From NCBI GenBank assembly GCA_965220085.1, contig CBDCOZ010000003.1:1632001-1696000 (forward strand): DNA of 64,000 nt, written 5' to 3'. The notes beneath the pieces are model-generated. The model ran no database searches. It saw only the letters and a list, made by a program, of their open reading frames with translations, and had not been told where the DNA came from. A program made the position numbers and the translations under genes. This stretch comes from Candidatus Oxydemutatoraceae bacterium (lineage in GTDB: Bacteria; Pseudomonadota; Gammaproteobacteria; Poriferisulfidales; Oxydemutatoraceae). This document shows, in pieces, positions 26,294 to 53,421 of this stretch (its first letter is position 1; the number at the start of each line of letters is the position of its first letter).

Positions 26294-26420
26294 TTGTGGT
26301 AGAGTACGCAATACTTATTTTGCGGAACACAAATGATTTAAGAAGTCACAAACAATTAAGTATTGTTTGTGCTCTCATATCGTTTGTGCCTCATTGAAAT
26401 GAAATGTTATTTGTGTGCAT
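26294..26420 (+). promoter_or_regulatory. Putative promoter/operator of the solitary LEGPLR-family gene
   Basis: TTGTGGTAGAGT at 26294 resembles the TTGTGGTATAGT element of the array promoters. Perfect inverted repeat CACAAACAAT-N5-ATTGTTTGTG at 26347-26371. Confidence 0.5.
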
Positions 26421-26461
26421 TAAACATGGTTGCGCCGGACAGGCCGTCAAGAAACAATAGA

Positions 26462-27694
26462 ATGAATTGCAAAACTTTCGATACGACTCCCGCGCAACGG
26501 GGCGCAACAATGATACGGCGCAGTCTTTGGGTGCTTCTGTTGCTCGCTGTTGTCTGCGCTCAGGCACAAGCGCAGACAAATCCGGTGACAGCTTCCACTA
26601 GCGTGGATGTATACACCACGCACACCGCCAACAACCCATACAGGTTCAAGATAGCCGACTTCCCTTTTACTGATACGAACGGCCGTAGCCTGCTTAGAGT
26701 GGTGTTTCAATTTCCCGGCCCCGACAACTTCAATGGCAACCTGCGCAATCCTCTCTCTCCAACAGTCGTACTCGAACAGACATACGTCAGAACCGCAGAC
26801 GATCTCAGGGACGGTAATCTGGTCTATTACCCAGCGGCGGGTCAGACCCCGCAAACTGGCTACGACAGCTTTACGTTCCAGGTGCAGGTTCTGAGAGAGC
26901 AGACGAATACGCAAACCTTCTACGACACCAGTAACGAGGCTACCATGACCATCAACCTGGTGATTGAGCCCCCGGCTGCCCCCACCGGCACCCCCGCCGT
27001 GACCGCCACCGACAGCATGGCCACTGCCCACAATGAGGATGTGGAGCTGACCGCTAGCACAGGCACCGTAATCGATGACAACTACATTGATACCGACACC
27101 CTGATGTGGCAGTGGCAACAGTCCGCCACCATGGCCGGCACATATGAAAACATCGACGGATCCAACGCCGCCACTTTCACACCCCAGCAGGAACATGTCG
27201 ACCAATACATCCGCGTCTGCCTCCGTTTCACCGATGGCATAGGCACCGTCGAGGGGCCGCTGTGTTCCCCCGGCAATATCATCACCGCTGTCAATGATGC
27301 CCCCACCAGCGAAAATGCTTTTGTGGATGTGCCCATCACCGCAACCGCAGACGAGCCCTATGTCTTCAAGACCTCCGACTTTCCATTCATGGACGAGGAG
27401 GATGGTACCACTCTGGGCGGCGTAGACATAGCCAGCACCGTCGCATCTGGCAAGGGCGAATTGCGCATTGGAAGCGGGTCTGCCGCCCTCGGCAACCTGC
27501 CCGCGGGCTCAATCAATATACTCACCTATTATCCCCCGCCTAACATCACCGCTACCCCTAACTTTGCCACTTTCACCTTCAAAGTGACCGATGTCGGCGG
27601 CGCCAGAAGCGAAATCCATAGGATGACCATCAACCTGAAGTCCTTCGATATACGCTTGCGGTTGCGCCTCTTCCTCGAAGGCCCGCTACGATAG
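26462..27694 (+). CDS. Secreted Ig/cadherin-like surface protein, RLRLRLFLEGPLR C-terminal family (solitary copy)
   Basis: Leader MNCKTFDTTP...RRSLWVLLLLAVVCAQAQA. Two cadherin-like domains (F...DFPF.D...YYP...FTF.V...MTINL) flank an Ig-like WQWQQ...TFTP...YIRVC domain. Ends DIRLRLRLFLEGPLR. Confidence 0.85.
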   Translation: MNCKTFDTTPAQRGATMIRRSLWVLLLLAVVCAQAQAQTNPVTASTSVDVYTTHTANNPYRFKIADFPFTDTNGRSLLRVVFQFPGPDNFNGNLRNPLSPTVVLEQTYVRTADDLRDGNLVYYPAAGQTPQTGYDSFTFQVQVLREQTNTQTFYDTSNEATMTINLVIEPPAAPTGTPAVTATDSMATAHNEDVELTASTGTVIDDNYIDTDTLMWQWQQSATMAGTYENIDGSNAATFTPQQEHVDQYIRVCLRFTDGIGTVEGPLCSPGNIITAVNDAPTSENAFVDVPITATADEPYVFKTSDFPFMDEEDGTTLGGVDIASTVASGKGELRIGSGSAALGNLPAGSINILTYYPPPNITATPNFATFTFKVTDVGGARSEIHRMTINLKSFDIRLRLRLFLEGPLR

Positions 27695-39788: not shown

Positions 39789-41117
39789 TTACATGTTTTC
39801 CACAATCGCATCGCCAAAGCCCGAGGTGGTTACCAGCTTGGCCCCCGGCATCAAACGTTGCAACTCGGTATCCAAATCTTTGCGGCTGCCGACATGGCGC
39901 CAGCCCGCGGATATGCCCCCGCGCACGCGCGCCAGATCATAGGTCACGGTTCTGGCGGCGATAGCGGCGGCGACACCTTTGAGAATCAAATCCGCGGCCT
40001 CGTCCCACCCCATGTGCCTGAGCATCATCTCCGCCGAGAGGATAATGGAGCCCGGATTGACGCGATTCTTATCGGCATACTTGGGAGCGCTGCCGTGCGT
40101 CGCTTCAAACACCGCGATCGTATCCGACATATTGGCGCCCGGCGCGATTCCGATCCCTCCGACCTGCGCGGCGAGGGCGTCGGAAATATAATCGCCATTC
40201 AAGTTTAGAGTCGCGATGACATCGTACTCATCGGGTTTCAGCAATATCTGCTGGAGAAAGTTATCGGCAATAATGTCCTTGATCACAATTTCGCAACCCG
40301 TCAGCGGATTAATAATCTGGCACCACGGCCCGCCGTCTATCGGTTGCGCGCCGAACTCATCGGTAACCACCTCATAGCCCCAGTTGCGAAAAGCCCCTTC
40401 GGTATATTTCATGATATTGCCCTTGTGCACCAGCGATACCGATGTGCGATTATTATCGATCGCATATTGCACCGCCTTGCGCACCAAGCGTTGCGAGCCT
40501 TCCTGCGACACCGGTTTGATACCGACGCCGCAAGATTGCGGAAAGCGGATTTCGGTCACCCCCATCTCCTCAATCAAAAAAGAGAGAACCTTCTTCGCCT
40601 CAGCGGAATCGGCGGGCCACTCGACCCCGGCATAGATGTCTTCGGTATTCTCGCGGAATACGATCATGTCGGTCGTCTCCGAGTCTTTTAACGGCGTCGG
40701 CGTGCCGGGGAAGTAGCGAATCGGTCTGACGCAGGCATACAGGTCCAACTCTTGACGAATAGCCACATTGAGCGAGCGCATCCCTTCGCCGACCGGCGTC
40801 GTCAAAGGGCCTTTGATGGCGACCGCATACTCCTTGATTAAGTCAAAGGTTTCTTGCGGCAACCAGTGTCCGTCGCCGTAGACCGCCACCGCTTTCTCGC
40901 CGGCGTAGATCTCCAACCATTCGATGGCGCGCTCGCCCGCATAGGCTTTCTTGACCGCCGTATCCACGACCAAGCGCATGACCGGCGTCACATCGGAACC
41001 GATGCCATCGCCTTCGATAAAAGGAATGATCGGACAGTCGGGGACTTCCAACCTGCCGTCGCCAAACGCCTTAATCGGATAACCTTGCGCCGGTCTGTTG
41101 ACCTTTTGCCGAACCAT
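39789..41117 (-). CDS. icd: NADP-dependent isocitrate dehydrogenase (dimeric type)
   Basis: [51 protein letters not shown]. Confidence 0.97.
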
Positions 41118-41162
41118 CGGTATCTCGCAGTGTCGTAAGCAAGGTAGCGCTGCGACTACAAC

Positions 41163-42455
41163 TTAGAACTGATCCTCTTCTGTCGAGCCGGATAGCGCGG
41201 TGACAGACGACGCGCCGCCTTGCACGACGGTTGTCACATCGTCAAAGTAGCCGGTGCCGACCTCCGCCTGATGGCTTGAGAAGGTGTAGCCCTTTTCCAA
41301 AGCGGCAAATTCCTTTTCTTGCACCATCTCGACATAGGCTTTCATGCCGTGCTCGACGTAGCCTGCGGACAGGTCAAACATGTGATACCACATATTATGG
41401 ATACCGGCCAAGGTGATGAACTGATACTTATAGCCCATCGCCCCCAACTCGCGCTGGAACTTCCCGATAGTCGCATCGTCCAGATTGCGCTTCCAGTTAA
41501 ACGACGGCGAGCAGTTATATGCGAGCATCTGATCCGGAAACTCCTTGCGGATGGCATCGGCAAACCGCTTCGCCTCATCCAAATCCGGCACAGCGGTTTC
41601 ACACCAGAGCAAGTCCGCATACGGAGCGTAAGACAAACCGCGCGATATCGCCTGATCCAAACCGGCCTTGGTACGGTAGAAACCTTCCGCCGTACGCTCC
41701 CCGGTGACAAACTCTTGGTCTCTGGGGTCGACATCGGAAGTCAGCAAATCCGCCGCATTCGCATCGGTGCGCGCGAGCAACAATGTCGGCACACGACAGA
41801 CATCGGCGGCGAGACGCGCCGCAACCAACTTCTGCACGGCCTCGCCGGTCGGCACCAATACCTTGCCGCCCATGTGGCCGCATTTCTTAACCGACGCCAA
41901 CTGATCTTCAAAATGAACCCCGCCGGCGCCCGCATCTATCATCGCTTTCATCAACTCAAAAGCATTCAGCACCCCGCCAAAGCCCGCTTCGGCATCCGCG
42001 ACGATGGGCGCAAAAAAGTCTTTGCCAGACTCGCCTTTTGCCCAAGCGATCTGGTCGGCGCGGGCAAACGAGTTATTGATCCGCCTCACGACCGCCGGCA
42101 CCGAGTCAGCCGGATACAAGGACTGATCGGGATACATGGATTCGGCAAGGTTCGCATCGGCCGCGACCTGCCAACCCGACAGATAAATCGCCTTCACCCC
42201 GGCCTTTACCTGTTGCAATGCCTGACCGCCGGTCAACGCGCCCAGACAGTTAACGTAAGGCTCGTCGTGTAACAAGCGCCACAATTTCTCGGCGCCGTTT
42301 TTGGCATAAGTAAATTCGGGTTGCACAGACCCGCTTAGCCTGACGACATCTTCGGCCGTATATTCGCGCCTGACACCCTTCCAACGAGGGTTTTCCGCCC
42401 AATCTTTTTCAATAGCGGCAACTAATTGTTTTCTATCCACAGTGACATACTCCAA
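41163..42455 (-). CDS. aceA: Isocitrate lyase
   Basis: [25 protein letters not shown] signature, [16 protein letters not shown]. Confidence 0.98.
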
Positions 42456-42965: not shown

Positions 42966-44607
42966 CTACCGCAACGGGCCTTCCAGGAAAAGGCGCAGGC
43001 GCAAGCGCAAGCGTTGCTCCAGATTTATCGTGATGGTGGCGGCATGGGCGCTGGTATTGCGGGTGATGGGTTGGCCAGCGTCATCAAGGTCGCCGCTCGG
43101 TTCATCGCCATCGTCGGTTACTTTGAAGGTGAATGCGGCATAGCCGCTCTGGACGCTCTGCCCGTCCGCCGGCCAGTAGGCGATGGCGCCGATGTTGGCG
43201 GCGGCCACGCGCTGACCGACAGTGGCGTCGGCGCCGCCTACCCGCAGGGTGCCGGCATCCGGCAGGCTGGCAATCTCCACGCTGGCCAAGTTGTCGCCGT
43301 CCTCATCATCAAAGGGAAAGTCTCTGATTGCGAACCTGAAAGGCCGGTTCATCGTGGCATCCGCCGACACATTTATCGTGCGGTCCCGGGGTATGGGCGC
43401 ATCGCTGGCGTTGTGCACCCGGGCGGCGGCGGAGCACAGCCCCGTCACAGTCTCCGGCATGGCGTGAAGATCTCTATAACTGACGCAGACGCGGATGTAC
43501 AGGCCGATATGCTCCAGCATGGGGGTGAATGAATCGCCAGTGGTACCGGGTATGGCGGTGAAAGTGCCGTTTATGGCGGCGGATGACCGCCATTCCCACT
43601 CAAGTGTGCGCAAGTCTATGCCATTGGGCTCCACTATGCCCTCTCTTCTGGCAAACAGTGCGGTATCTTCGGCGTAGGTCGGGGCTTCAACAGCGGTGGG
43701 GTTGCCGGGGTTGGTGACTATGGTGGGCCTGCCGCTGGTGGCAACCTGGGCTGTCGATACCAGACGGATAAAGATTTGGTTGGTGGTTCTGGAGGCCATG
43801 TTGCTGGTGCCATCGCTGCCATCATCGGTCACACCGAAAGCGATGATATCGTACGAGGCATTGGCATCATCAGGGTCGGTGGGTTGCTGGCCCGGCTCCG
43901 GGTAATAGGTCAGAGCGCCGGCATTCAGTTGGGCCACAGTTATGGGGTTTTCGGGGACGGCGGTCAGGGCCGTGCCATTCAGGGCCAGGGTGCCATTATT
44001 GGGCACTCGATTCAGGGTGACACTGGCCAGCATGTCGTTATCGGCATCCTCAAAAGTGAAGTCGGTTGACGGGAGCACATAGGGGTTCGCGGAAGTGGCG
44101 GTGGTCGCCACCGAAATGAAGTTGGCGGTGGGCATCGGCCGGTCATTGATGTTGGCCACGGCGGTGGCTATCTGGTTGCATCGCTGCTCGTCATTGCCGC
44201 CGCTGTCGGTGAACGATGCGCAGACCCGCAGAAACTTGCCCACCTCGTCATCGCCCGGAGTGAAGGCGGCCCTGTCCGCGCCGACGATGTCGGTATAGAT
44301 GCCGCCATTGCTATCGGCCGCACTCCACTGCCAGGCCAGGGTGCCGACCGTGGTGGTTGGCGTATTGTCCGGGTCTTCTATGCCGCCTTGGGATGCGGTG
44401 ATGGCGGAGTCTTCGGTGGGAGCGGCTATGCCGCTGGCGTAGGCGACCATCGGCATGCCGGTAGCATTGTCCTGTGCCTGTGCTTGAGTAGATACGATGA
44501 GGAAAGCGAGCAACAAGAGCGGGCAGAGACCGCACCCGCTCAGGTCAATTCGGCACGGGGGGGGGGGGGGGGGGGGGGGGCATCAGTATTAAAATTTGTT
44601 GTTTCAT
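42966..44607 (-). CDS. LEGPLR-family secreted protein with four Ig/cadherin-like domains; frameshifted by poly-C24 after codon 9 (putative phase-OFF)
   Basis: RBS AGGA and ATG at 44607 give MKQQILILM-P8-VPN-stop. A tract of 3n+2 C would join it to the long ORF (…LLLLAFLIVSTQAQA…RLRLRLFLEGPLR). Confidence 0.8.
44557..44580 (-). repeat. Homopolymer G24 (+) / C24 (coding strand)
   Basis: Counted directly; matches the RGGGGGGGA translation in the ORF track. Confidence 0.9.
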
Positions 44608-44985
44608 ATCTATTATTCCTATGACAGTCTGTATATCACGAATGCAGTCGTGCGATGAGTTCTGCGCACTCTGCCACAAAATGCAAGTCATCTATCAGTT
44701 TCTGTATCTCCTGCTTCTAGCAAATTTAATTATACGTTATATGTCCACAAACTGTTTGCAGACTGTTTAATATTGCACTATACCACAAGTTCGGTCATTT
44801 GCAAATTGGATTGAAATCTAGGTTTTATCTAGGTTTGTGTCGCACTATACCACAAAGTGCGAATCATGCAAGCGCTTGTTTGATGCCATGACATAGCGGA
44901 CATCTGGGGCAGACATTGTGTGTCATTGGCGCTTGCACGGTATCCATGGCAATGCAATCTCAGGATGCGTTGCCTTAAAACCCAT
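44582..44985 (-). promoter_or_regulatory. Promoter/leader cassette, copy C
   Basis: AT-rich block nearly identical to 47379-47780 and (first ~290 bp) 52277-52567. Two TTGTGGTATAGTGC extended -10-like elements (44775-44788, 44842-44855). Confidence 0.75.
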
Positions 44986-45126
44986 GCCGACGCAAGGGTT
45001 CTGGAGCCTGATTCGTTATCCATGGCAATGCGCGCGATGCGCTGCCCTGAAACCCTTGCCAAGACGGGGCTTGCGGTGTGCTATGCCGCCCCCCAGAATA
45101 CTCGCCTGCTCCGCAGATTACTCGCG

Positions 45127-45978
45127 CTATCGCAACGGGCCTTCCAGGAAAAGGCGCAACCGCAAGCGTATATCAGGCGGCAACTGTGTCACCTGATGAG
45201 CGTCTGTGCTACACAGCGGCCCTTCCGATGCGGGCATGGAAAACTGATCCTTGAAAGAAACACAGGCGCGGACGTACCTGCCCAGTTGTGCGGCAGTCGG
45301 TGCGAAATCTGAGGAATAAGTAGCGCCCGCTATGTCGCTGTAAGCACTGGGTGCGGGAACACCGCTGGCGGGGGCGTCGGCCTGTTGCCACTGCCAACTC
45401 AAGGTGCTGACATCAATGCCGTTGAGGTCCGTCACACCGGTGATGGAAGCGCTAATCCGGTGCGTGTCTGTGGCGGTGGCGATTGCGGGCGCGCCGCTGG
45501 CGGCCGTCTGCGCGAGGGCCCCAATCAGATTGATGGTCATGGTGGCCTTGCTATCGACACCCCCAGTCTGTATCGCAAAGGTAAAACTGTCGTAACCGTT
45601 GGCGACAGAGATGGCAGTGACCGGGGGGGTGTAGGAGACACCCTGGCTACTACTCGTTCCGGTGAGGTCAGAGGCGAGGTATATAAATGTCTGACCATCA
45701 CCGTCACCTGCGAGTGCCACCATGATATTGGTCCGGATATCTATCAGCCTGCCATTGGCGGGGTAGGAGAAGACCAGCACAGCGCCACTGGTAAGACCGA
45801 AATCTGCGGCGGTGAAGTAATATGTGCCGCCGCCAATCGGGACATCAACACTCTGGTCTGTCGCCTGGGCATAAACATGGGTTGCGCCCAATGCCAAGGG
45901 CAGAATCAGCAGAATAAGCAACCGACGGCTAAGCCGGGTTAGTGTTCGGGGGGCAGTATCAAAAATTTGGCAGTTCAT
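45127..45978 (-). CDS. LEGPLR-family secreted protein (short leader, N-domain alpha, C-module X)
   Basis: AGGAG RBS before MNCQIFDTAPR; signal peptide ...LALGATHVYA; ends LPPDIRLRLRLFLEGPLR. Confidence 0.85.
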   Translation of the reverse strand: MNCQIFDTAPRTLTRLSRRLLILLILPLALGATHVYAQATDQSVDVPIGGGTYYFTAADFGLTSGAVLVFSYPANGRLIDIRTNIMVALAGDGDGQTFIYLASDLTGTSSSQGVSYTPPVTAISVANGYDSFTFAIQTGGVDSKATMTINLIGALAQTAASGAPAIATATDTHRISASITGVTDLNGIDVSTLSWQWQQADAPASGVPAPSAYSDIAGATYSSDFAPTAAQLGRYVRACVSFKDQFSMPASEGPLCSTDAHQVTQLPPDIRLRLRLFLEGPLR

Positions 45979-46085
45979 AGTATTTCTCCTGATGGTTTGG
46001 GTTTCGTGAATGCGGTTGTGCAATGAGTCGCACCATCTCTTGTGCGCCTCATAACACTCTCCTTTTCCGCCGTAGGTTACTTGCA

Positions 46086-47404
46086 TCATCGCAGGGGGCC
46101 CTCAAGGAAGAGACGCAACCGCAAGCGCAGATTTGAGATGCCGCTATCCGCGCCAGTCTCTATGCCAAAGGTCAGTGTGCCTGTATCGCCGTCTGCGTCG
46201 GTGGCGGTGAGGGTATAGGCGGTCTTGGCAACCGTAGCGGTGGGGGTGCCGCTTATGGTGCGGGTGGCTGCGGTGAAACTGAGGCCCGCGGGCAAGGCCG
46301 GGGTCAGGCTGTATGTGACAGCGCCATTGCCGCCGGTCGCCGCAGGCAGAATCAAGTCGGTGATGGCCTTGCCGGTCACCCAGACCTGATCCGCCACCGA
46401 TGTATTGTCGAAGAAGGGCACATTGGATACCAGTACGCCAGTGCTACACAGCTCTGAGGATGCCGGAGCGGAGAACTGGTCCATGAATGCGGCGCAAACC
46501 CGCAGGTACTTGCTCGCGTGTGCGGCAAGGGGTGTGAAGTTTGAGGAAATTGTGCCTCTGGCAACGGTTATATCGCTGTAGGCACTGATTGCATTGGCGC
46601 CAACGCCTATCACATCGGCCTGCTGCCACTTCCAGGTCAGGGTGGCGACATCAATGCCGTTGGGCTCCGTCACACCGGCGATGGATGCCGTAAGCAGCAC
46701 ACCGGTGTTATAGGCGGTGGCGCCCATGGCGGCCGCAACAGTGGGCGCGCCGCTGGCGGCCGTCTGCGTGGATGCTCCCACCAGATTGATGGTCACGGTG
46801 GCCGTGGTATGGTTGGCACCGACATGCAACTCAAAGATGAAGCTGTCATAACCGTTGGCGACAGAGATGGCAGCGGTCGGGGGCCTGTATTCGACGGTTC
46901 CGACTCCAGTGGAGAACTCAATCGGGAAATATGCATCTGTATTATCGTCATCAACACTTGAAACGCCCACGTCTCGCACAAGACTGGTATCAAATAACCT
47001 GCCATGAGTGGGTTGGGTTTGGAACATCAGTATTTGGGAGTCAAGACCGCCGAAATCTATTTTCCTGAGCACATATCCGTTGCTTCCAATAGTGACATCA
47101 ACACTGGTGTCCGAGGCTTGAGCGTTAGCCTGTGTCGCGCCCAATGCCAGACACAGGACCAACAGGCAACGCATGAGCGGATCCGACCACAGTCCGGCAG
47201 GCAGGCGGACCGCAACAGACCGCAACCACGACAACAGACCGCGCACAGCCGGGCGGCGCGACCGCTTTGCGGATGGCGGGTTGCTATGTGCGGGTGATAA
47301 AAAACGGGTGAGAAGGCGATACGGCGAAACGCCGGCAATCCCCTTACTTACAAAGCTGCGGGGGGGGGGGGGGGGGGTATCAGTATTAAAATTTGTTGTT
47401 TCAT
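46086..47404 (-). CDS. LEGPLR-family secreted protein (long leader, N-domain beta, Ig plus He_PIG-like C-module Y); frameshifted by poly-C18
   Basis: AGGAG RBS and ATG at 47404 give MKQQILILI-P6-AAL-stop; 3n+1 C restores the frame. He_PIG-like LPAGLSF...TISGTPT. Ends NLRLRLRLFLEGPLR. Confidence 0.8.
47360..47377 (-). repeat. Homopolymer G18 / C18
   Basis: Counted directly. Confidence 0.9.
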
Positions 47405-47780
47405 ATCTGTCTCTCCTGTGACAGTCTGTATATCGTGAATGCAGTCGTGCGATGAGTGCGGTGTGCTCTGCACAAAATGCAAGTCATCTATCAGTTTCTG
47501 TATCTCCTGCTTCTAGCAAATTTAATTATACGTTATATGTCCACAAACTGTTTGCAGACTGTTTAATATTGCACTATACCACAAGTTCGGTCATTTGCAA
47601 ATTGGATTGAAATCTAGGTTTTATCTAGGTTTGTGTCGCACTATACCACAAAGTGCGAATCATGCAAGCGCTTGTTTGATGCCATGACATAGCGGACATC
47701 TGGGGCAGACATTGTGTGTCATTGGCGCTTGCACGGTATCCATGGCAATGCAATCTCAGGATGCGTTGCCTTAAAACCCT
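47379..47780 (-). promoter_or_regulatory. Promoter/leader cassette, copy B
   Basis: Near-identical to copies C and A; TTGTGGTATAGTGC at 47571-47584 and 47638-47651. Confidence 0.75.
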
Positions 47781-47853
47781 TGCCAAGACGGGGCTTGCGG
47801 TGTGCTATGCCGGTCCCCAGAATACTCGCCTGCTCCGTCGCAGATTACTCGCG

Positions 47854-49005
47854 CTATCGCAACGGACCCTCAAGAAAGAGCCGCAGCCGCAAGCGCAGAT
47901 TTGAGATGCCGCGATCCGCGCCCGTCTCTATGCCAAAGGTCAGCGTGCTTGTATCGCCGTCTGCGTCGGTGGCGGTGAGAGCATAGGCGGTCTTGGCAAC
48001 CGTAGCGGTGGGGGTGCCGCTGATGGTGCGGGTGGCTGCGGTGAAACTGAGTCCCGCGGGCAGGGCCGGGGTCAGGCTGTACGTGACAGCGCCATTGCCG
48101 CCGGTCGCCGCAGGCAGAACCAGGTCGGTGATGGCCTTGCCGGTCGCCCAGACCTGATCCGCCACCGATGTATTGTCGAAGAAGGGCACATTGGATACCA
48201 GTACGCCAGCGCTACACAGCGGCCCTTCCGATGCGGGCGTGGAGAACTGGTCCATGAATGCGGCGCAAACCCGCAGGTACTTGCTCGCGTGTGCGGCAAG
48301 GGGTGTGAAGTTTGAGGAAATTGTGCCTGTGACAGTGGTTATATCGCTGTAGGCGCTGATTGCATTGGCGCCAATGCCTATAATATCGGCCTGCTGCCAC
48401 TTCCATGCCAGAGTGCCGACATTGATGCCGTTGGGCTCAGTCACACCTGTGATGGAGGCAACCAGCGGCACACCGGTGTTATAGGCGGTGGCGGTTGTGG
48501 CGGCCGCAACAGTGGGCGCGCCGGTAGCGGTCATCTGCGTGAGTGCCCCCACCATGTTGATGGTCACGGTGGCCGTGGTATGGTTGCCACCGACATGCAA
48601 CTCAAAGATGAAGCTGTCATAACCGCTGACGACAGAGATGGCAGTGGCCGGGGGCCTGTATTCGACACGATGGGTTCCGCCAGAGAAATCGATCGGGAAA
48701 TATCCATCCGCCTGATCGCCATAAACACTTGAAACCGCCACGTCTCGCATATCATTGGTATTATACAACCTGCCATGAGTGGGTTGGGTTTGGTATCTCA
48801 GTGTTTGGGAAACAAAACCGCCGATATCTGTTTTCTCGAGTGTATACCCACTGCTTCCAATAGCGACATCAACACTGGTGTCCGAGGCTTGAGCGTTGGC
48901 CTGTGTCGCGCCCAATGCCAAGGGCAGAATCAGCGACCAGCGGCTAAGCCGCGTCATCGTTGCCCGCCGGTGCCGGGGGGCGGTATCAGAAATTGGGTAG
49001 TTCAT
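47854..49005 (-). CDS. LEGPLR-family secreted protein (short leader, N-domain beta, C-module Y)
   Basis: AAGGAG RBS, MNYPISDTAPR...LALGATQANA; C-half nearly identical to the 46086 gene; same terminal motif. Confidence 0.85.
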   Translation of the reverse strand: MNYPISDTAPRHRRATMTRLSRWSLILPLALGATQANAQASDTSVDVAIGSSGYTLEKTDIGGFVSQTLRYQTQPTHGRLYNTNDMRDVAVSSVYGDQADGYFPIDFSGGTHRVEYRPPATAISVVSGYDSFIFELHVGGNHTTATVTINMVGALTQMTATGAPTVAAATTATAYNTGVPLVASITGVTEPNGINVGTLAWKWQQADIIGIGANAISAYSDITTVTGTISSNFTPLAAHASKYLRVCAAFMDQFSTPASEGPLCSAGVLVSNVPFFDNTSVADQVWATGKAITDLVLPAATGGNGAVTYSLTPALPAGLSFTAATRTISGTPTATVAKTAYALTATDADGDTSTLTFGIETGADRGISNLRLRLRLFLEGPLR

Positions 49006-49112
49006 CGTATTTCTCCTTCTGGTTTGGGTTTCGTGAATGCGGTTGTGCAATGAGTCGCACCATCTCTTGTGCGCCTCATAACATTCTCCTTTTCCGCCGT
49101 AGGTTACTCGCA

Positions 49113-49979
49113 TCATCGCAACGGGCCCTCAAGAAAGAGGCGCAACCGCAAGCGTATATCAGGCGGCAACTCTGTCACCTGAGTGCCGGCGCTACACAGC
49201 GGCCCTTCCGGTTCCGGCGTGTCATGCTGATCCATAAAAGAAACACAGGCGCGCACATACCTGCCCAGTTGGGCGGCAGTCGGTGCGAAGAGGGAAGAAG
49301 TGGCATCCTCTATGTCAACAATGTAGTCGCTGGGTGCGGGAACACCGCTGGCGGGGGCGTCGGCCTGTTGCCACTGCCAGCTTAGGGTGCCGACATCAAT
49401 GCCGTTGAGGTCCGTCACACCGGTGATGGAAGCGCTGATCCGGTGCGTGTCTGTGGCGGTGGTGATTTTGGGCGCGCCGCTGGCGTCCGTCTGCGTGGAT
49501 GCGCCCACCAGATTGATGGTCATGGTGGCCCTGATATGGTTGCCGAAGGAACGTGTCTCAAAGATGAAGCTGTCGTAACCGTTGACGACAGAGACGGCAG
49601 CGGCCGGGGGCCTGTACTCCATAGTACCGGTTCCGCCGGAGCCGGTGAAATCGGCGCTCCAGAAATGTGCATCCCCGCCATCATCATCACCTAAAACGTC
49701 CACGTCTCGGTTAAGAGAGACATTAAACACCCTGCCATGAGTGGGTTGGGAGTAGAGATACAAAGTTCCATGGGTGGATCCAAAACCGCCGAAATCTGTA
49801 CGCTTAAATACATATGCGCCGCCAATCGGGACATTAACACTGCTGGCTTGAGCTTGAGCGTTGGCCTGTGTCGCGCCCAATGCCAAGGGCAGAATCAGCA
49901 GAATAAGCGACCGGCGGCTAAGCCGGGTCATCGTTGTCCGCCAGCACCGGGGGGCAGTATCAAAAATTTGGCAGTTCAT
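49113..49979 (-). CDS. LEGPLR-family secreted protein (short leader, N-domain gamma, C-module X)
   Basis: AGGAG RBS, MNCQIFDTAPR leader, same terminal motif. Confidence 0.85.
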   Translation of the reverse strand: MNCQIFDTAPRCWRTTMTRLSRRSLILLILPLALGATQANAQAQASSVNVPIGGAYVFKRTDFGGFGSTHGTLYLYSQPTHGRVFNVSLNRDVDVLGDDDGGDAHFWSADFTGSGGTGTMEYRPPAAAVSVVNGYDSFIFETRSFGNHIRATMTINLVGASTQTDASGAPKITTATDTHRISASITGVTDLNGIDVGTLSWQWQQADAPASGVPAPSDYIVDIEDATSSLFAPTAAQLGRYVRACVSFMDQHDTPEPEGPLCSAGTQVTELPPDIRLRLRLFLEGPLR

Positions 49980-51698
49980 AGTATTTCTCCTAATGGTTTG
50001 GGTTTCGTGAATGCGGTTGCAATGAGTCGCACCATAAACAATCCGCAAACAGTTGATGGAGCACAATACTTAATTGTTTGTGCCTCATTAAATGTTGCTT
50101 GTGTACATAACTCACAAAGCGCAAGTCATCCACAAGTATCTTTGTATCCTGTCTCATCCTCTTGTGCACCTCATAACTATCCTTCTCCGCAGCTACGCAC
50201 TACCGCAACGGGCCTTCAAGGAAAAGGCGCAGGCGCAGGCGTATATCAGGCGGTAGCTCTGTCACCCGAGTGCCGGCGCTACACAGCGGCCCTTCCGGTT
50301 CCGGCGTGTCATGCTGATCCATAAAAGAAACACAGGCGCGCACATACCTGCCCAGTTGGGCGGCAGTCGGTGCGAAGAGGGAAGAAGTGGCATCCTCTAT
50401 GTCAACAATGTAGTCGCTGGGTGCGGGAACACCGCTGGCGGGGGCGTCGGCCTGTTGCCACTGCCAGCTTAGGGTGCCGACATCAATGCCGTTGAGGTCC
50501 GTCACACCGGTGATGGAAGCGCTAATCCGGTGCGTGTCTGTGGCGGTGGTGATTTTGGGCGCGCCGGTAGCGGCCGTCTGCGTGGATGCTCCCACCAGGT
50601 TGATGGTCATGGTGGCCATCGTATCGACACCCCCAGTCAGTATCGAAAAGGTAAAACTGTCGTAACCGTTGGCGACAGAGATGGCAGTGGCCGGGGGTGT
50701 GTAGGAGACACCCTGGCTGTTAGCCGTTCCGGTGAGGTCAAAAGCGAAGTATGCAAACGTCTGACCATCACCGTCACCTGCGAGTGCCACCATGATATTG
50801 TTCCGGATATCTATCAGCCTGCCATTGGCGGGGTGGGAGAAGAACCGCACAGCGCCACTGGTAAGACCGAAATCTGCGGCAGTAAAGTAATATGTGCTGC
50901 CGCCAATCGGGACATTAACACTCTGGTCCGTCGCCTGGGCATAAACATAGGTTGCGCCCAATGCCAAGGGCAGAATCAGCAGAATAAGCGACCGGCGGCT
51001 AAGCCGGGTCATCGTTGTCCGCCAGCACCGGGGGGCAGTATCAAAAATTTGGCAGTTCATAGTATTTCTCCTAATGGTTTGGGTTTCGTGAATGCGGTTG
51101 CAATGAGTCGCACCATAAACAATCCGCAAACAGCTGATGGAGCACAATACTTAATTGTTTGTGCCTCATTAAATGTTGCTTGTGTACATAACTCACAAAG
51201 CGCAAGTCATCCACAAGTATCTTTGTATCCTGTCTCATCCTCTTGTGCACCTCATAACTATCCTTCTCCGCAGCTACGCACTACCGCAACGGGCCTTCAA
51301 GGAAAAGGCGCAGGCGCAGGCGTATATCAGGCGGTAGCTCTGTCACCCGAGTGCCGGCGCTACACAGCGGCCCTTCCGGTTCCGGCGTGTCATGCTGATC
51401 CATAAAAGAAACACAGGCGCGCACATACCTGCCCAGTTGGGCGGCAGTCGGTGCGAAGAGGGAAGAAGTGGCATCCTCTATGTCAACAATGTAGGCGATG
51501 GGTGCGGGAACACCGCTGGCGGGGGCGTCGGCCTGTTGCCACTGCCAGATTAGGGTACCGACATCAATGCCGTTGAGGTCCGTCACACCGGTGATGGAAG
51601 CGCTAATCCGGTGCGTGTCTGTGGCGGTGGTGATTTTGGGCGCGCCGGTAGCGGCCGTCTGCGTGGATGCCCCAACCATGTTGATGGTCATGGTGGCC
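49873..51698. repeat. ~745-bp near-identical direct repeat pair (49873-50617 and 50954-51698, offset 1081)
   Basis: Each copy spans C-module X, the intergenic region and the leader of the next gene; only a few substitutions visible. Confidence 0.9.
50200..51060 (-). CDS. LEGPLR-family secreted protein (short leader, N-domain alpha, C-module X)
   Basis: AGGAG RBS; N-domain close to the 45127 gene, C-module close to the 49113 and 51281 genes. Confidence 0.85.
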   Translation of the reverse strand: MNCQIFDTAPRCWRTTMTRLSRRSLILLILPLALGATYVYAQATDQSVNVPIGGSTYYFTAADFGLTSGAVRFFSHPANGRLIDIRNNIMVALAGDGDGQTFAYFAFDLTGTANSQGVSYTPPATAISVANGYDSFTFSILTGGVDTMATMTINLVGASTQTAATGAPKITTATDTHRISASITGVTDLNGIDVGTLSWQWQQADAPASGVPAPSDYIVDIEDATSSLFAPTAAQLGRYVRACVSFMDQHDTPEPEGPLCSAGTRVTELPPDIRLRLRLFLEGPLR

Positions 51699-52302
51699 GT
51701 GGTCTCGACGCCACCTCTAAGTATCACGAAGATGAAGCTGTCATAACCGTTGACGTCAGAGATGGCAGCGGTCGGGGGCCTGTATTCGATATCACCGGTT
51801 CCGCCAGAACCAGAGAAATCGCCCCAGAAATATGTATCCAAAAAGCCATCATCAACACCTGAAACGGCCAAGTTTTCGTTAAGAGAGACATCAAACACCC
51901 TGCCATGAGTGGGTTGGGTGTAGAGAAACAAACTTCTGCCGGATCCAAAACCGCCGAAATCCGTACGCTTGAATACATATGCGCCGCCAATCGGGACATT
52001 AACACTGCTGGCTTGAGCCTGAGCGTTGGCCTGGGTTGCGCCCAATGCCAGGCACAGGGCCAGCAGGCAACGCATGAGCGGACCCGACCACAGTCCGGCG
52101 GGCAGGCGGACCGCAACAGACCGCAGCCACAACAACAGACCGCGCACAGCCGGGCGGCGCGACCGCTTTGCGGATGGCGGGTTGCGATGTGCGGGTGATA
52201 AAAAGCGGGTGAGAAGGCGATACGGCGATACGCCGGCAATCCCCTTACTTACAAGGCTGCGGGGGGGGGGGGGGGTATCAGTATTAAAATTTGTTGTTTC
52301 AT
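51281..52302 (-). CDS. LEGPLR-family secreted protein (long leader, N-domain gamma, C-module X); frameshifted by poly-C15
   Basis: AGGAG RBS and ATG at 52302 give MKQQILILI-P5-AAL-stop; 3n+1 C restores the frame. The longer ORF start at 52381 has no evident RBS. Confidence 0.8.
52261..52275 (-). repeat. Homopolymer G15 / C15
   Basis: Counted directly. Confidence 0.9.
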
Positions 52303-52567
52303 ATCTATCTCTCCTATGACAGTCTGTATATCGTGAATGCAGTCGTGCGATGAGTTCTGCGCACTCTGCCACAAAATGCAAGTCATCTATCAGTTTCTGT
52401 ATCTCCTGCTTCTAGCAAATTTAATTATACGTTATATGTCCACAAACTGTTTGCAGACTGTTTAATATTGCACTATACCACAAGTTCGGTCATTTGCAAA
52501 TTGGATTGAAATCTAGGTTTTATCTAGGTTTGTGTCGCACTATACCACAAAGTGCGAATCATGCAAG
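52277..52567 (-). promoter_or_regulatory. Promoter/leader cassette, copy A
   Basis: Near-identical to copies B and C; TTGTGGTATAGTGC at 52470-52483 and 52537-52550. Confidence 0.75.
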
Positions 52568-52642
52568 TGCCTTTGTATCCTGCCTCTCTCCCCTTGTGTG
52601 CGCCCCCAGAATACTCGCCTGCTCCGCCGCCGGGTATTCGCA

Positions 52643-52740
52643 TTATCGCAGGGGACCTTCAAGGAAGAGGCGCAGGCGCAAGCGTATATCAGGCGGCAAC
52701 TCTGCCACCAGACTGCCTGTGCTACACAGCGGCCTTTCGG
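52643..52740 (-). pseudogene. 3' relic of a LEGPLR-family gene
   Basis: Only ~32 codons (PERPLCSTGSLVAELPPDIRLRLRLFLEGPLR-stop) match the family; the upstream part has no signal peptide or family similarity. Confidence 0.75.
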
Positions 52741-52938
52741 GGCGGGCACCTCCGGCGGGGATAGCGCGGAAATAGGCGGTATTGCTACCTCCGCCGCTTT
52801 TGCCGTGTGAAAATAGCGATTCGGCATCGCCGTTTTGCGACACCTTCCGTTGGCCGGGTAGCGTCGGGTATGTCGGTCCCGACTCTGAGTACGGGTATAT
52901 AATGGCGATAACATTTTCCACTACGGGACATCTCAATC

Positions 52939-53421
52939 ATGGATTACAAAACTGCGGATTTATGCGACCGGCGCTCCGACACCCTCTCCGTTGCCAGCCC
53001 CGGCCGGATGAGAGACTTTGGCGGCAAAAATATTTTTAGCGGTGTTATTGAAACAGTCAAGTGTTTTGAAGATAACTCTTTTGTGCGCCGCGCGCTTGAA
53101 ACCGACGGTACCGGCAAGGCGCTGGTCGTCGATGGCGACGGTTCTATGCGTTGCGCTTTGCTCGGAGACATCCTCGCCGCGCTGGCGGTTAAGAATCATT
53201 GGCGCGGCATTGTCGTCAATGGTTGTATTCGGGATTCGCAACTGATAGGGGAGTTGCCGCTTGGCGTCAAAGCCCTTGCCACAAACCCGCTTAAAAGCGT
53301 CAAAAACAATGTCGGCGAACACAATGTCGCGGTGGAATTCTGCGATGTGCGCTTTGTGCCCGGTCACTGGCTGTTTGCCGATGCCGACGGCATCGTTCTA
53401 TCGCCGGACAAACCGGAATAA
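52939..53421 (+). CDS. rraA: RraA-like protein / HMG aldolase family
   Basis: TADLCD, FGG...FSG.IETVKCFEDNS, LVVDGDGS.RCALLGD, GCIRD, ADADGI. Confidence 0.92.
   Translation: MDYKTADLCDRRSDTLSVASPGRMRDFGGKNIFSGVIETVKCFEDNSFVRRALETDGTGKALVVDGDGSMRCALLGDILAALAVKNHWRGIVVNGCIRDSQLIGELPLGVKALATNPLKSVKNNVGEHNVAVEFCDVRFVPGHWLFADADGIVLSPDKPE

Follow-up and report, generated by a model that had tools for sequence, protein, structure and literature searches.

Module composition of the tandem array

A tandem array of genes for predicted exported proteins lies on the minus strand, at positions 42966 to 52936, of a 64,000-nucleotide (nt) stretch of the genome of Candidatus Oxydemutatoraceae bacterium (assembly GCA_965220085.1, contig CBDCOZ010000003.1, here C3, positions 1632001 to 1696000), hereafter the window. 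The genome comprises 2.49 Mb in 3 contigs, with 55.8% G+C and 99% completeness. The array holds seven complete genes (g1 to g7) and one 3′ remnant (g0), all of which end in the same tail, ...RLRLRLFLEGPLR, directly before the stop codon. Six of the genes, g1 to g6, combine a small set of leaders, N-domains, and C-modules, and we consider it likely that they are complete paralogs in tandem that were made mosaic by ordinary homologous recombination (segmental gene conversion and/or unequal crossover), in runs headed by poly-C tracts.

These six genes occupy positions 45127 to 52302 on the minus strand, with stops at 51281, 50200, 49113, 47854, 46086, and 45127, where an earlier note on this DNA, made from the sequence alone, had placed them. 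That note had also described two leader types (L1 and L2), three N-domain types (alpha, beta, and gamma), and two C-modules (X and Y, the latter with an added He_PIG-like domain). A MAFFT alignment of the six units (1,816 columns) and the segment identities derived from it recover these modules in exactly the combinations that had been claimed:

51281..52302, minus strand: g1, L1-gamma-X; ATG at 52302; 15 C at 52261-52275; N-domain 51698-52018, C-module 51346-51678
50200..51060, minus strand: g2, L2-alpha-X, 286 amino acids (aa); ATG at 51060; relic of six C; N-domain 50617-50934, C-module 50265-50597, tail 50200-50250; junction blocks LALGA at 50954-50968 and TATMTINLVGA at 50587-50616
49113..49979, minus strand: g3, L2-gamma-X, 288 aa; N-domain 49530-49853, C-module 49178-49510
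47854..49005, minus strand: g4, L2-beta-Y-He_PIG, 383 aa; N-domain 48574-48888, C-module 48198-48554, He_PIG 47904-48197
46086..47404, minus strand: g5, L1-beta-Y-He_PIG; ATG at 47404; 18 C at 47360-47377; N-domain 46803-47117, C-module 46430-46783, He_PIG 46136-46429
45127..45978, minus strand: g6, L2-alpha-X′, 283 aa from MNCQ; N-domain 45547-45864, C-module 45192-45527

Across the upstream region and leader, g1 and g5 are 91.8% identical, g2 and g3 are 99.7% identical, the remaining L2 pairs share 87 to 92%, and L1 compared with L2 gives 62 to 67%. N-domain identity is 91.8% for g2 and g6 (alpha), 83.2% for g4 and g5 (beta), and 84.0% for g1 and g3 (gamma), with 56 to 71% across types. The C-modules of g1, g2, and g3 are 97.9 to 99.3% identical; that of g6 matches these at 86 to 87%, so that X falls into two sub-types, g1 to g3 and g6, and the Y modules of g4 and g5 are 88.8% identical, with 63 to 67% between X and Y. 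The He_PIG segments of g4 and g5 are 95.6% identical. The array thus consists of complete paralogs with alike leaders and C-modules (86 to 99.7%) and divergent N-domains (56 to 71% between types). For example, in g2 and g3, flanks that are 99.7% and 99.3% identical surround N-domains that are only 61% alike, and the nearest N-domain partner of g2 is g6, four genes away. Genes g4 and g5 appear to stem from the duplication of an entire gene, with different leaders acquired afterwards.

The assignment of a He_PIG-like domain to Y was borne out by Pfam: PF05345 matches g4 (E 5e-11, 43.4 bits) and g5 (E 5e-12, 46.6 bits; gathering cutoff, 24) and no other protein of the array, the remaining five of the seven having no Pfam match at all. 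Against NCBIfam, none of the seven proteins scored above a cutoff, the ZirU_fam hit in g7 reaching 30 bits against a cutoff of 100.

Incongruent histories of the modules

Inter-paralog recombination is well supported by these sequence comparisons. The earlier note had named congruent module trees as an outcome that would refute its mosaic reading; the trees are incongruent by approximately unbiased (AU) tests, by triplet scans, and by the pairwise homoplasy index (PHI), and the mosaic therefore requires exchange between paralogs. For the AU tests, which used a maximum-likelihood tree for each module, the N-domain data reject the groups g2-g3 (nominal p 4e-26) and g1-g2-g3 (p 3e-42), the latter being supported at 95/96 in the C-module tree. 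The leader data reject g4-g5 and g1-g3, both of which the N-domain and C-module support or allow, and the C-module data reject g1-g5 (p 9e-53) and, weakly, g2-g6 (p 0.016). In the triplet scans, a child sequence was compared with two parents by a maximal-segment score with 2,000 permutations; the result was 0 of 2,000 permutations in six of seven triplets, with switches at alignment columns 728-751 and 1061-1089. The PHI test (our own implementation, on shared coding columns, with 1,000 permutations) gave 0 of 1,000 permutations over all modules (z = -16) and was not significant inside the N-domain (243 of 1,000) or inside the C-module (143 of 1,000), so the exchanges fall between modules rather than within them. 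By eye, the 3′ ends of the gamma N-domains (columns 1060-1090) form a micro-mosaic, alpha-like in g1 and beta-like in g3, in a domain within which PHI is not significant.

Synonymous divergence (Nei-Gojobori) was compared between the same modules. For g2-g3 it is 0.65 in the N-domain and 0.04 in the C-module; for g1-g3, 0.20 and 0.05; for g2-g6, 0.10 and 0.30; and for g4-g5, 0.18 and 0.17, with 0.11 in He_PIG. Pair rankings at synonymous sites thus reverse between modules, which is explicable only by different ancestry. The ratio of nonsynonymous to synonymous divergence (dN/dS) is 0.8 to 1.2 for same-type N-domain pairs, 0.33 to 0.37 for the C-module, and 0.22 for He_PIG; of these parts, the N-domain is the one in which change is tolerated or favored.

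Joints between the modules

The junctions had been predicted to fall in two conserved blocks, LALGA and MTIN[LM]VGA, and the scans place the breakpoints there. On the 5′ side, the modules meet where the signal-peptide coding block CTTGGCATTGGGCGC, which encodes LALGA, ends: g2 and g3 differ by 1 mismatch in the 327 nt up to LALGA and by 39% mismatches right past it. The 3′ joint is GCCACCATGACCATCAA..GG.GCA, which encodes TATMTINLVGA. Here, the breakpoints vary from event to event by tens of bases (columns 1061, 1082-1089, and 1108-1118), a scatter in keeping with homologous exchange rather than a fixed site. Across 20 family genes from seven loci, the mean pairwise nucleotide difference is 0.22 at LPLALGA and 0.08 to 0.16 at ATMTINLVGASTQTAATGAP, compared with 0.4 to 0.7 within the N-domain and 0.12 to 0.3 in the C-module.

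Two further joints were found. The tail is the third: the final ∼40 nt of g3 resemble those of g4, g5, and g6 rather than those of g1 and g2, with 9 mismatches to g2. The poly-C tract is the fourth: over the stretch that begins ∼265 nt ahead of the ATG and ends at the tract, the cassettes of g1, g5, and g7 match one another completely or almost completely, and from the first base past the tract g7 is entirely different.

Most recently copied segments

The youngest tracts, with a synonymous divergence of 0.01 to 0.05, are those in which the constant parts (C-module, spacer, leader, and promoter cassette) have been made alike. They involve the following units, among which g7 is listed for its L1 cassette:

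50954..51671, minus strand: R1, a 718-nt unit running from the g1 C-module through the tail and a 130-nt spacer to the L2 leader of g2, up to LALGA
49873..50590, minus strand: R2, the second copy of the 718-nt unit, with the g2 C-module, spacer, and g3 leader
52303..52568, minus strand: L1 upstream cassette, copy 1 of three near-identical copies; TTGCAA-16-TGnTATAGT at 52499-52472, Shine-Dalgarno AGGAG
47405..47790, minus strand: L1 upstream cassette, copy 2; promoter-like site at 47600-47573
44608..44995, minus strand: L1 upstream cassette, copy 3; promoter-like site at 44804-44777
42966..44607, minus strand: g7, L1 cassette with an MKQQILILM start; 24 C at 44557-44580; tail as in the six genes

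R1 and R2 lie 1,081 nt apart and differ by 6 mismatches in 718 nt, with one exact run of 360 nt, and a repeat finder agrees. The C-modules of g2 and g3 have an exact run of 256 nt in common, and the promoter cassettes of g5 and g7 have 309 exact nt in common (47471-47779 in copy 2). No N-domain anywhere in the genome is a closer relative of an array N-domain than the same-type array copies. The youngest events are thus concerted evolution of the constant parts, without delivery of new N-domains, and because of that, the claim of the earlier note that ongoing shuffling generates a repertoire is unproven: the newest tracts yield no new pairs of N-domain and C-module, and N-domains of one type are 8 to 17% apart.

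Poly-C leaders and probable expression runs

The L1 leader reads ATGAAACAACAAATTTTAATACTGATA, followed by 15 C in g1 or 18 C in g5. L2, MN[CY].I.DTAPR, is carried by g2, g3, g4, and g6 and has only six C; it is alignable to L1 from ∼55 nt before the ATG through the position of the tract. The sequence that follows the tract position in L2, ..GCTGGCGGACAACG.T.ACCCGGCTTAGCC.., is the one found behind long tracts at many other loci, which identifies L2 as the short leader of the family, its tract collapsed to six C and in frame. Read from the L1 ATG, and with frame states that hinge on the homopolymer lengths called by the assembler, the tracts of 15, 18, and 24 C are all out of frame (OFF), giving MKQQILIL[IM] and a run of prolines with a stop within 3 to 4 codons; the body is in frame if the number of C, n, satisfies n mod 3 = 1 (g1 and g5) or n mod 3 = 2 (g7). 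These starts cover the following positions:

52204-52302, minus strand: out-of-frame poly-C start
47306-47404, minus strand: out-of-frame poly-C start
44509-44607, minus strand: out-of-frame poly-C start

The L1 linker, ∼240 nt from tract to signal peptide (52045-52260 and 47143-47359), is open in the poly-proline frame, as it is at the L1-type loci C3:1701790, 363504, and 1858060 (..VSKGIA..LYRL..RFL.P..). Its conserved basic and hydrophobic stretch would make an unusually long pre-sequence.

On the coding strand upstream of genes, the promoter-like sequence TTGCAA-16-TGnTATAGT is present only in the three L1 cassettes. The gene junctions of the array are of two kinds. The spacers between g1 and g2 and between g2 and g3 measure 130 nt, and the pairs g3/g4 (49113-49116) and g5/g6 (46086-46089) overlap by ATGA, such that an in-frame upstream ATG of g4 (at 49116) or of g6 (at 46089) lies on the stop of the preceding gene. 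These overlaps may provide translational coupling. Between this upstream ATG and the L2 start, both junction copies, which are 92% alike, read through 37 codons in frame without a stop.

Genome-wide, a tract of at least 9 bases is present in 76 of the 116 tail genes at the head of a run versus 9 of 70 followers (Fisher p 7e-13), in a rough count based on stop-to-stop open reading frames (ORFs) in which a follower is a gene that follows another tail gene within 450 nt. Tracts concentrate at run heads, and in our reading what a tract heads is a run and not a single gene. The L2 genes, which have no long tract, are probably transcribed in operons that begin with a poly-C gene, and an out-of-frame first gene may silence its followers by polarity. 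According to the earlier note, recombination moves variants under or out of the switch. One part of this proposal stands, inasmuch as beta and gamma N-domains are found behind both L1 and L2. The other part is not supported: the L2 genes lack promoter-like sites of their own and directly adjoin or overlap the gene ahead of them, so that control by the poly-C head gene may persist.

Proposed origin of the array and alternative explanations

If tandem paralogs were indeed made mosaic by ordinary homologous recombination, strand exchanges would begin and end at four stretches of alike DNA, namely the poly-C leader, LALGA, TATMTINLVGA...GAP, and the tail, the third of these coding for the last strand and linker of the N-domain. 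The proteins are predicted to be small and Sec exported, with a variable N-terminal beta-sandwich, a constant Ig-like C-domain (plus He_PIG in two of them), and a family-wide tail of 14 residues. The latest events would have spread the X C-module, the spacer, the L2 leader, and the L1 promoter cassette among the genes, whose N-domains would have stayed old and, with a dN/dS near 1, would be the part that varies and that probably faces a ligand or the host. Expression probably occurs in three runs (g1 to g4, g5 and g6, and g7), each of which would have a promoter cassette and a poly-C frame switch at its head, with downstream genes keeping the six-C relic. The sequence comparisons show the modules, their incongruent histories, the breakpoints, the pattern of divergence, and the frame state of the three tracts; from these we infer how the copies recombined, that the genes form operons, a role at the surface or in adhesion, and any advantage under selection. 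The genes recA, mutS, and mutL are present and intact.

Several points weigh against this account. The groups for the AU tests were chosen after the identity table was known, and the tiny p values are nominal. No signal came from the seventh triplet, in which g6 was placed between g2 and g4 (263 of 2,000 permutations). The promoter calls are consensus matches only, and surface location and tract switching are predicted properties. The gene order comes from the assembly alone: two of the three public runs are represented by short-read contigs of 200 to 340 nt with no spanning read, and the ∼1% of the Hi-C run that was covered placed 0 reads here. Finally, same-type N-domains are 8 to 17% apart, so that no recent N-domain transfer is documented.

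A stronger version, in which the array is an actively shuffling, selected generator of a repertoire that moves N-domains under or out of poly-C control in the manner of antigenic variation, is unlikely in our view. It draws on the beta and gamma N-domains that each occur behind L1 and L2, on junction blocks conserved even at synonymous sites, on the N-domain dN/dS of ∼1, on exact repeats of 256 to 360 nt that are good recombination substrates, and on the occurrence of the same modules in other combinations elsewhere in the genome. However, the youngest tracts homogenize constant parts and create no new N-domain and C-module pairs, the L2 genes look cotranscribed with the switch gene and so need not escape its control, silent donor copies were not found, and no second strain or sample turned up in the protein collection or in the metagenome and genome scans. 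That the pattern is instead an artifact of assembly, produced by misjoined repeats or by two strain alleles (g2 and g3) set side by side, is quite improbable. The source is an uncultured population, repeats within the array reach 718 nt at 99% identity, and the short-read contigs end at every repeat with no spanning record listed; the joints listed in the short-read data had sides of only 20 to 23 letters and were treated as repeat noise. Nevertheless, seven unique pieces, namely four of the six N-domains (gamma1, gamma3, beta4, and beta5), both Y C-modules (g4 and g5), and the g4 end, are listed at a depth of 24 to 27 with 0 mismatches, and the thrice-repeated L1 cassette is listed at a depth of 66, as the assembly predicts. 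In addition, alpha2 has a constant unit on both sides, from which it can be reasoned that a single path uses each segment once, the assembly has 3 contigs at 99% completeness, and the same pattern recurs in other arrays.

A dedicated machine, be it a shufflon or invertase, a diversity-generating retroelement, or cassettes of the pilE/pilS type, has very little probability, even though the genome encodes two reverse transcriptases and three tyrosine recombinases. None of these enzymes is encoded inside the window, and no serine recombinase was found; consistent with the earlier note, which had seen no recombinase there, the window yields no match to PF00589 or PF00239 and no reverse transcriptase, the two reverse-transcriptase genes lying at C3:1925765-1926349 and C1:170091-170651. 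The array copies are all direct and complete genes with breakpoints spread over tens of bases. A shufflon or invertible segment was accordingly rejected on the direct orientation of the repeats, the spread of breakpoints (columns 728-751 and 1061-1118), and the lack of a recombinase at the locus. A retroelement was rejected because A is involved in only 42 to 55% of N-domain mismatches and a quick scan found no A-biased repeat pair near either reverse transcriptase, and a silent-cassette system was rejected because N-domain queries returned 7 to 9 matches each, those that were placed being the six array genes or four other tail-family genes. With no such enzymes in the window, no A bias, and N-domains only in complete genes, dedicated machines and cassette systems are unlikely. 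Least credible of all is an origin without recombination, from old duplicates with a fast N-domain and a constrained C-module. It would fit the higher dN/dS of the N-domain (0.8 to 1.2, against 0.33 to 0.37 for the C-module) but not the 16-fold difference in g2-g3 synonymous divergence between modules, the opposite direction of that difference in g2-g6, or the incongruence found by the AU, triplet, and PHI tests alike.

Predicted fold of the array proteins

Two Ig-like domains and an export signal peptide are predicted for the array proteins. Mature g2 was modeled with AlphaFold2 using 27 relatives, of which all but two are paralogs from this genome; the model has a mean predicted local distance difference test (pLDDT) score of 90 and a predicted template modeling (pTM) score of 0.75, the tail being modeled with lower confidence. 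It comprises two beta-sandwich domains (residues 1 to ∼120 and ∼125 to 232). The junction block forms the last strand of the first domain and the linker, and the DNA joints thus coincide with domain borders. Foldseek searches with the model returned two-Ig-domain adhesion molecules (E 1e-4, TM 0.2 to 0.3), and VIA-align gave Z scores of 7.8 for the N-domain against a CSPG4 repeat and of 6 to 7.8 for the C-module against Ig/FN3 domains, values of Z < 8 being uninformative by the scale of that tool. In view of these low scores, which point to generic Ig-, FN3-, cadherin-, or CSPG-like sandwiches, the domains are described as Ig-like sandwiches without assignment to a specific family. The model is compatible with an adhesin-type role.

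The body of g7 (516 aa) is unlike g1 to g6 and includes two C-type domains in a hidden Markov model scan. The stretches between these have no Pfam match; from reading the sequence, we take them to be cadherin-like.

The gene family in the genome and beyond

The array is part of a large family. Around 90 C or G tracts of 9 to 28 bases are found in the whole genome, most of them behind a start of the type ATGAA....CAA..TTTAATACT. The tail stands at the end of 214 ORFs, and the tail ORFs of at least 150 aa make up 19.5% of the genome; 115 of 186 such ORFs contain N-type and/or C-type domains in many orders. A second array (C3:798150-802703) has the same pattern, with C-modules 99% and N-domains 46% identical. 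A third locus of three genes (C3:1699397-1702725), 3.4 kb past the end of the window, combines a common He_PIG-type 3′ module with three different fronts. Its first gene has an L1 leader, 19 C, and a beta-type N-domain (81 to 84% identical to those of g4 and g5) that runs at TVNLVA directly into a different He_PIG module.

It is conceivable, though rather doubtful, that the four DNA joints are kept alike as recombination joints across ∼200 genes (∼1/5 of the genome) in a plug-and-play architecture. Were this so, promoter and switch cassettes, N-domains, and C-modules could be put together in any combination, with the poly-C tract acting at once as frame switch and as site of crossover, and an entire run of variants would be gated by a single tract.

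Beyond this genome, the family is sparsely represented. In a collection of 5.8 billion proteins, 43 of 45 homologs of g2 came from the genome itself, so that no haplotypes from other samples are represented there, and the two foreign homologs were 37% and 44% identical. Exact and degenerate scans of metagenome and genome contigs for the L1 cassette and for tail-coding DNA gave 0 matches, in a search from which records of the same genome may be excluded. Among 31 genomes of relatives, 6 matched, including the genome itself, which is the only one of its genus; none of them yielded an orthologous array, and the foreign matches were few and mostly on the He_PIG part. A literature search on poly-C phase variation in symbionts yielded papers on phase variation in general, none of them about this organism.

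Relation to known variable surface-protein families

In cassette-type antigenic variation, such as that of Neisseria pilE/pilS, Borrelia vlsE, and Anaplasma msp2, one expression site is served by many silent, truncated donors. The array resembles these systems in that variable segments lie between conserved blocks that could serve as homology for conversion, but every copy here is a complete gene, from start and signal peptide to tail. The likeness to antigenic-variation loci drawn in the earlier note does not extend to cassette systems, as silent partial donor copies were not found in the genome.

The repeat tract of the gonococcal opa genes is a pentamer. Like the array, opa combines many complete paralogs, repeat tracts in the leader region, and variable regions within a conserved frame. 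The opa genes, however, are scattered single genes, each with its own tract and with an unrelated fold, whereas here, a tract heads a run and the followers carry relics. The opa genes are phase variable, have near-identical copies within genomes, and are in frame less often than expected (PMC13183285); here, 3 of 3 tracts are out of frame.

The closest match to the idea of genes passing under or out of a switch is provided by the babA/babB/babC chimeras of Helicobacter pylori. The bab paralogs have alike ends and a divergent middle, RecA-dependent intragenomic conversion produces chimeras, and one paralog has a CT repeat in its 5′ end, such that a chimera gains or loses the frame switch (PMC5483490). 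The bab genes are dispersed and encode outer membrane barrel adhesins, with switching shown by experiment; in contrast, the genes here are in tandem and encode small soluble-type two-domain proteins, with the tail as a putative anchor and a homopolymer of 15 to 24 C as a putative switch.

The array is a new case of a bab- or opa-like mosaic family that adds detail but no new mechanism. Recombining, phase-variable surface-protein families are known mainly from human pathogens, and this putative one belongs to an uncultured gammaproteobacterium with a small genome. It is a compact and well-resolved example in which the varying part (the N-domain), the parts that are kept alike, and the sites of exchange can be seen together. 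If recombination is ongoing, gain and loss of units at the 1,081- and 1,087-nt repeats, N-domain swaps, and heterogeneity of tract length are predicted in the host-associated community.

Array edges and neighboring features

The upstream edge of the array is formed by the remnant:

52643..52936, minus strand: g0, remnant ORF; the final ∼25 codons encode the terminal part of an X-type C-module and the tail (…EGPLCS…LPPDIRLRLRLFLEGPLR, then stop)

The array is flanked at 52939-53421 (plus strand) and 39789-42455 (minus strand) by what we take, from reading the translations, to be housekeeping genes, including isocitrate dehydrogenase- and isocitrate lyase-like ORFs. Palindrome-rich repeated spacers (…GGCAACGCATCCTGAGATTGCATTGCCATGG…) lie 3′ of the stops of g6 and g4 on the minus strand (44900-45100 and 47720-47850); they look REP-like, and the one after g6 is partly duplicated. 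Elsewhere in the genome, one of the reverse-transcriptase genes lies ∼3.6 kb from a tail-family gene of 2,040 aa. Within the window, a lone tail-family gene (26363-27694, plus strand), with an MNCKTFD-type leader and no long tract, is located by the cell-division (dcw) cluster.

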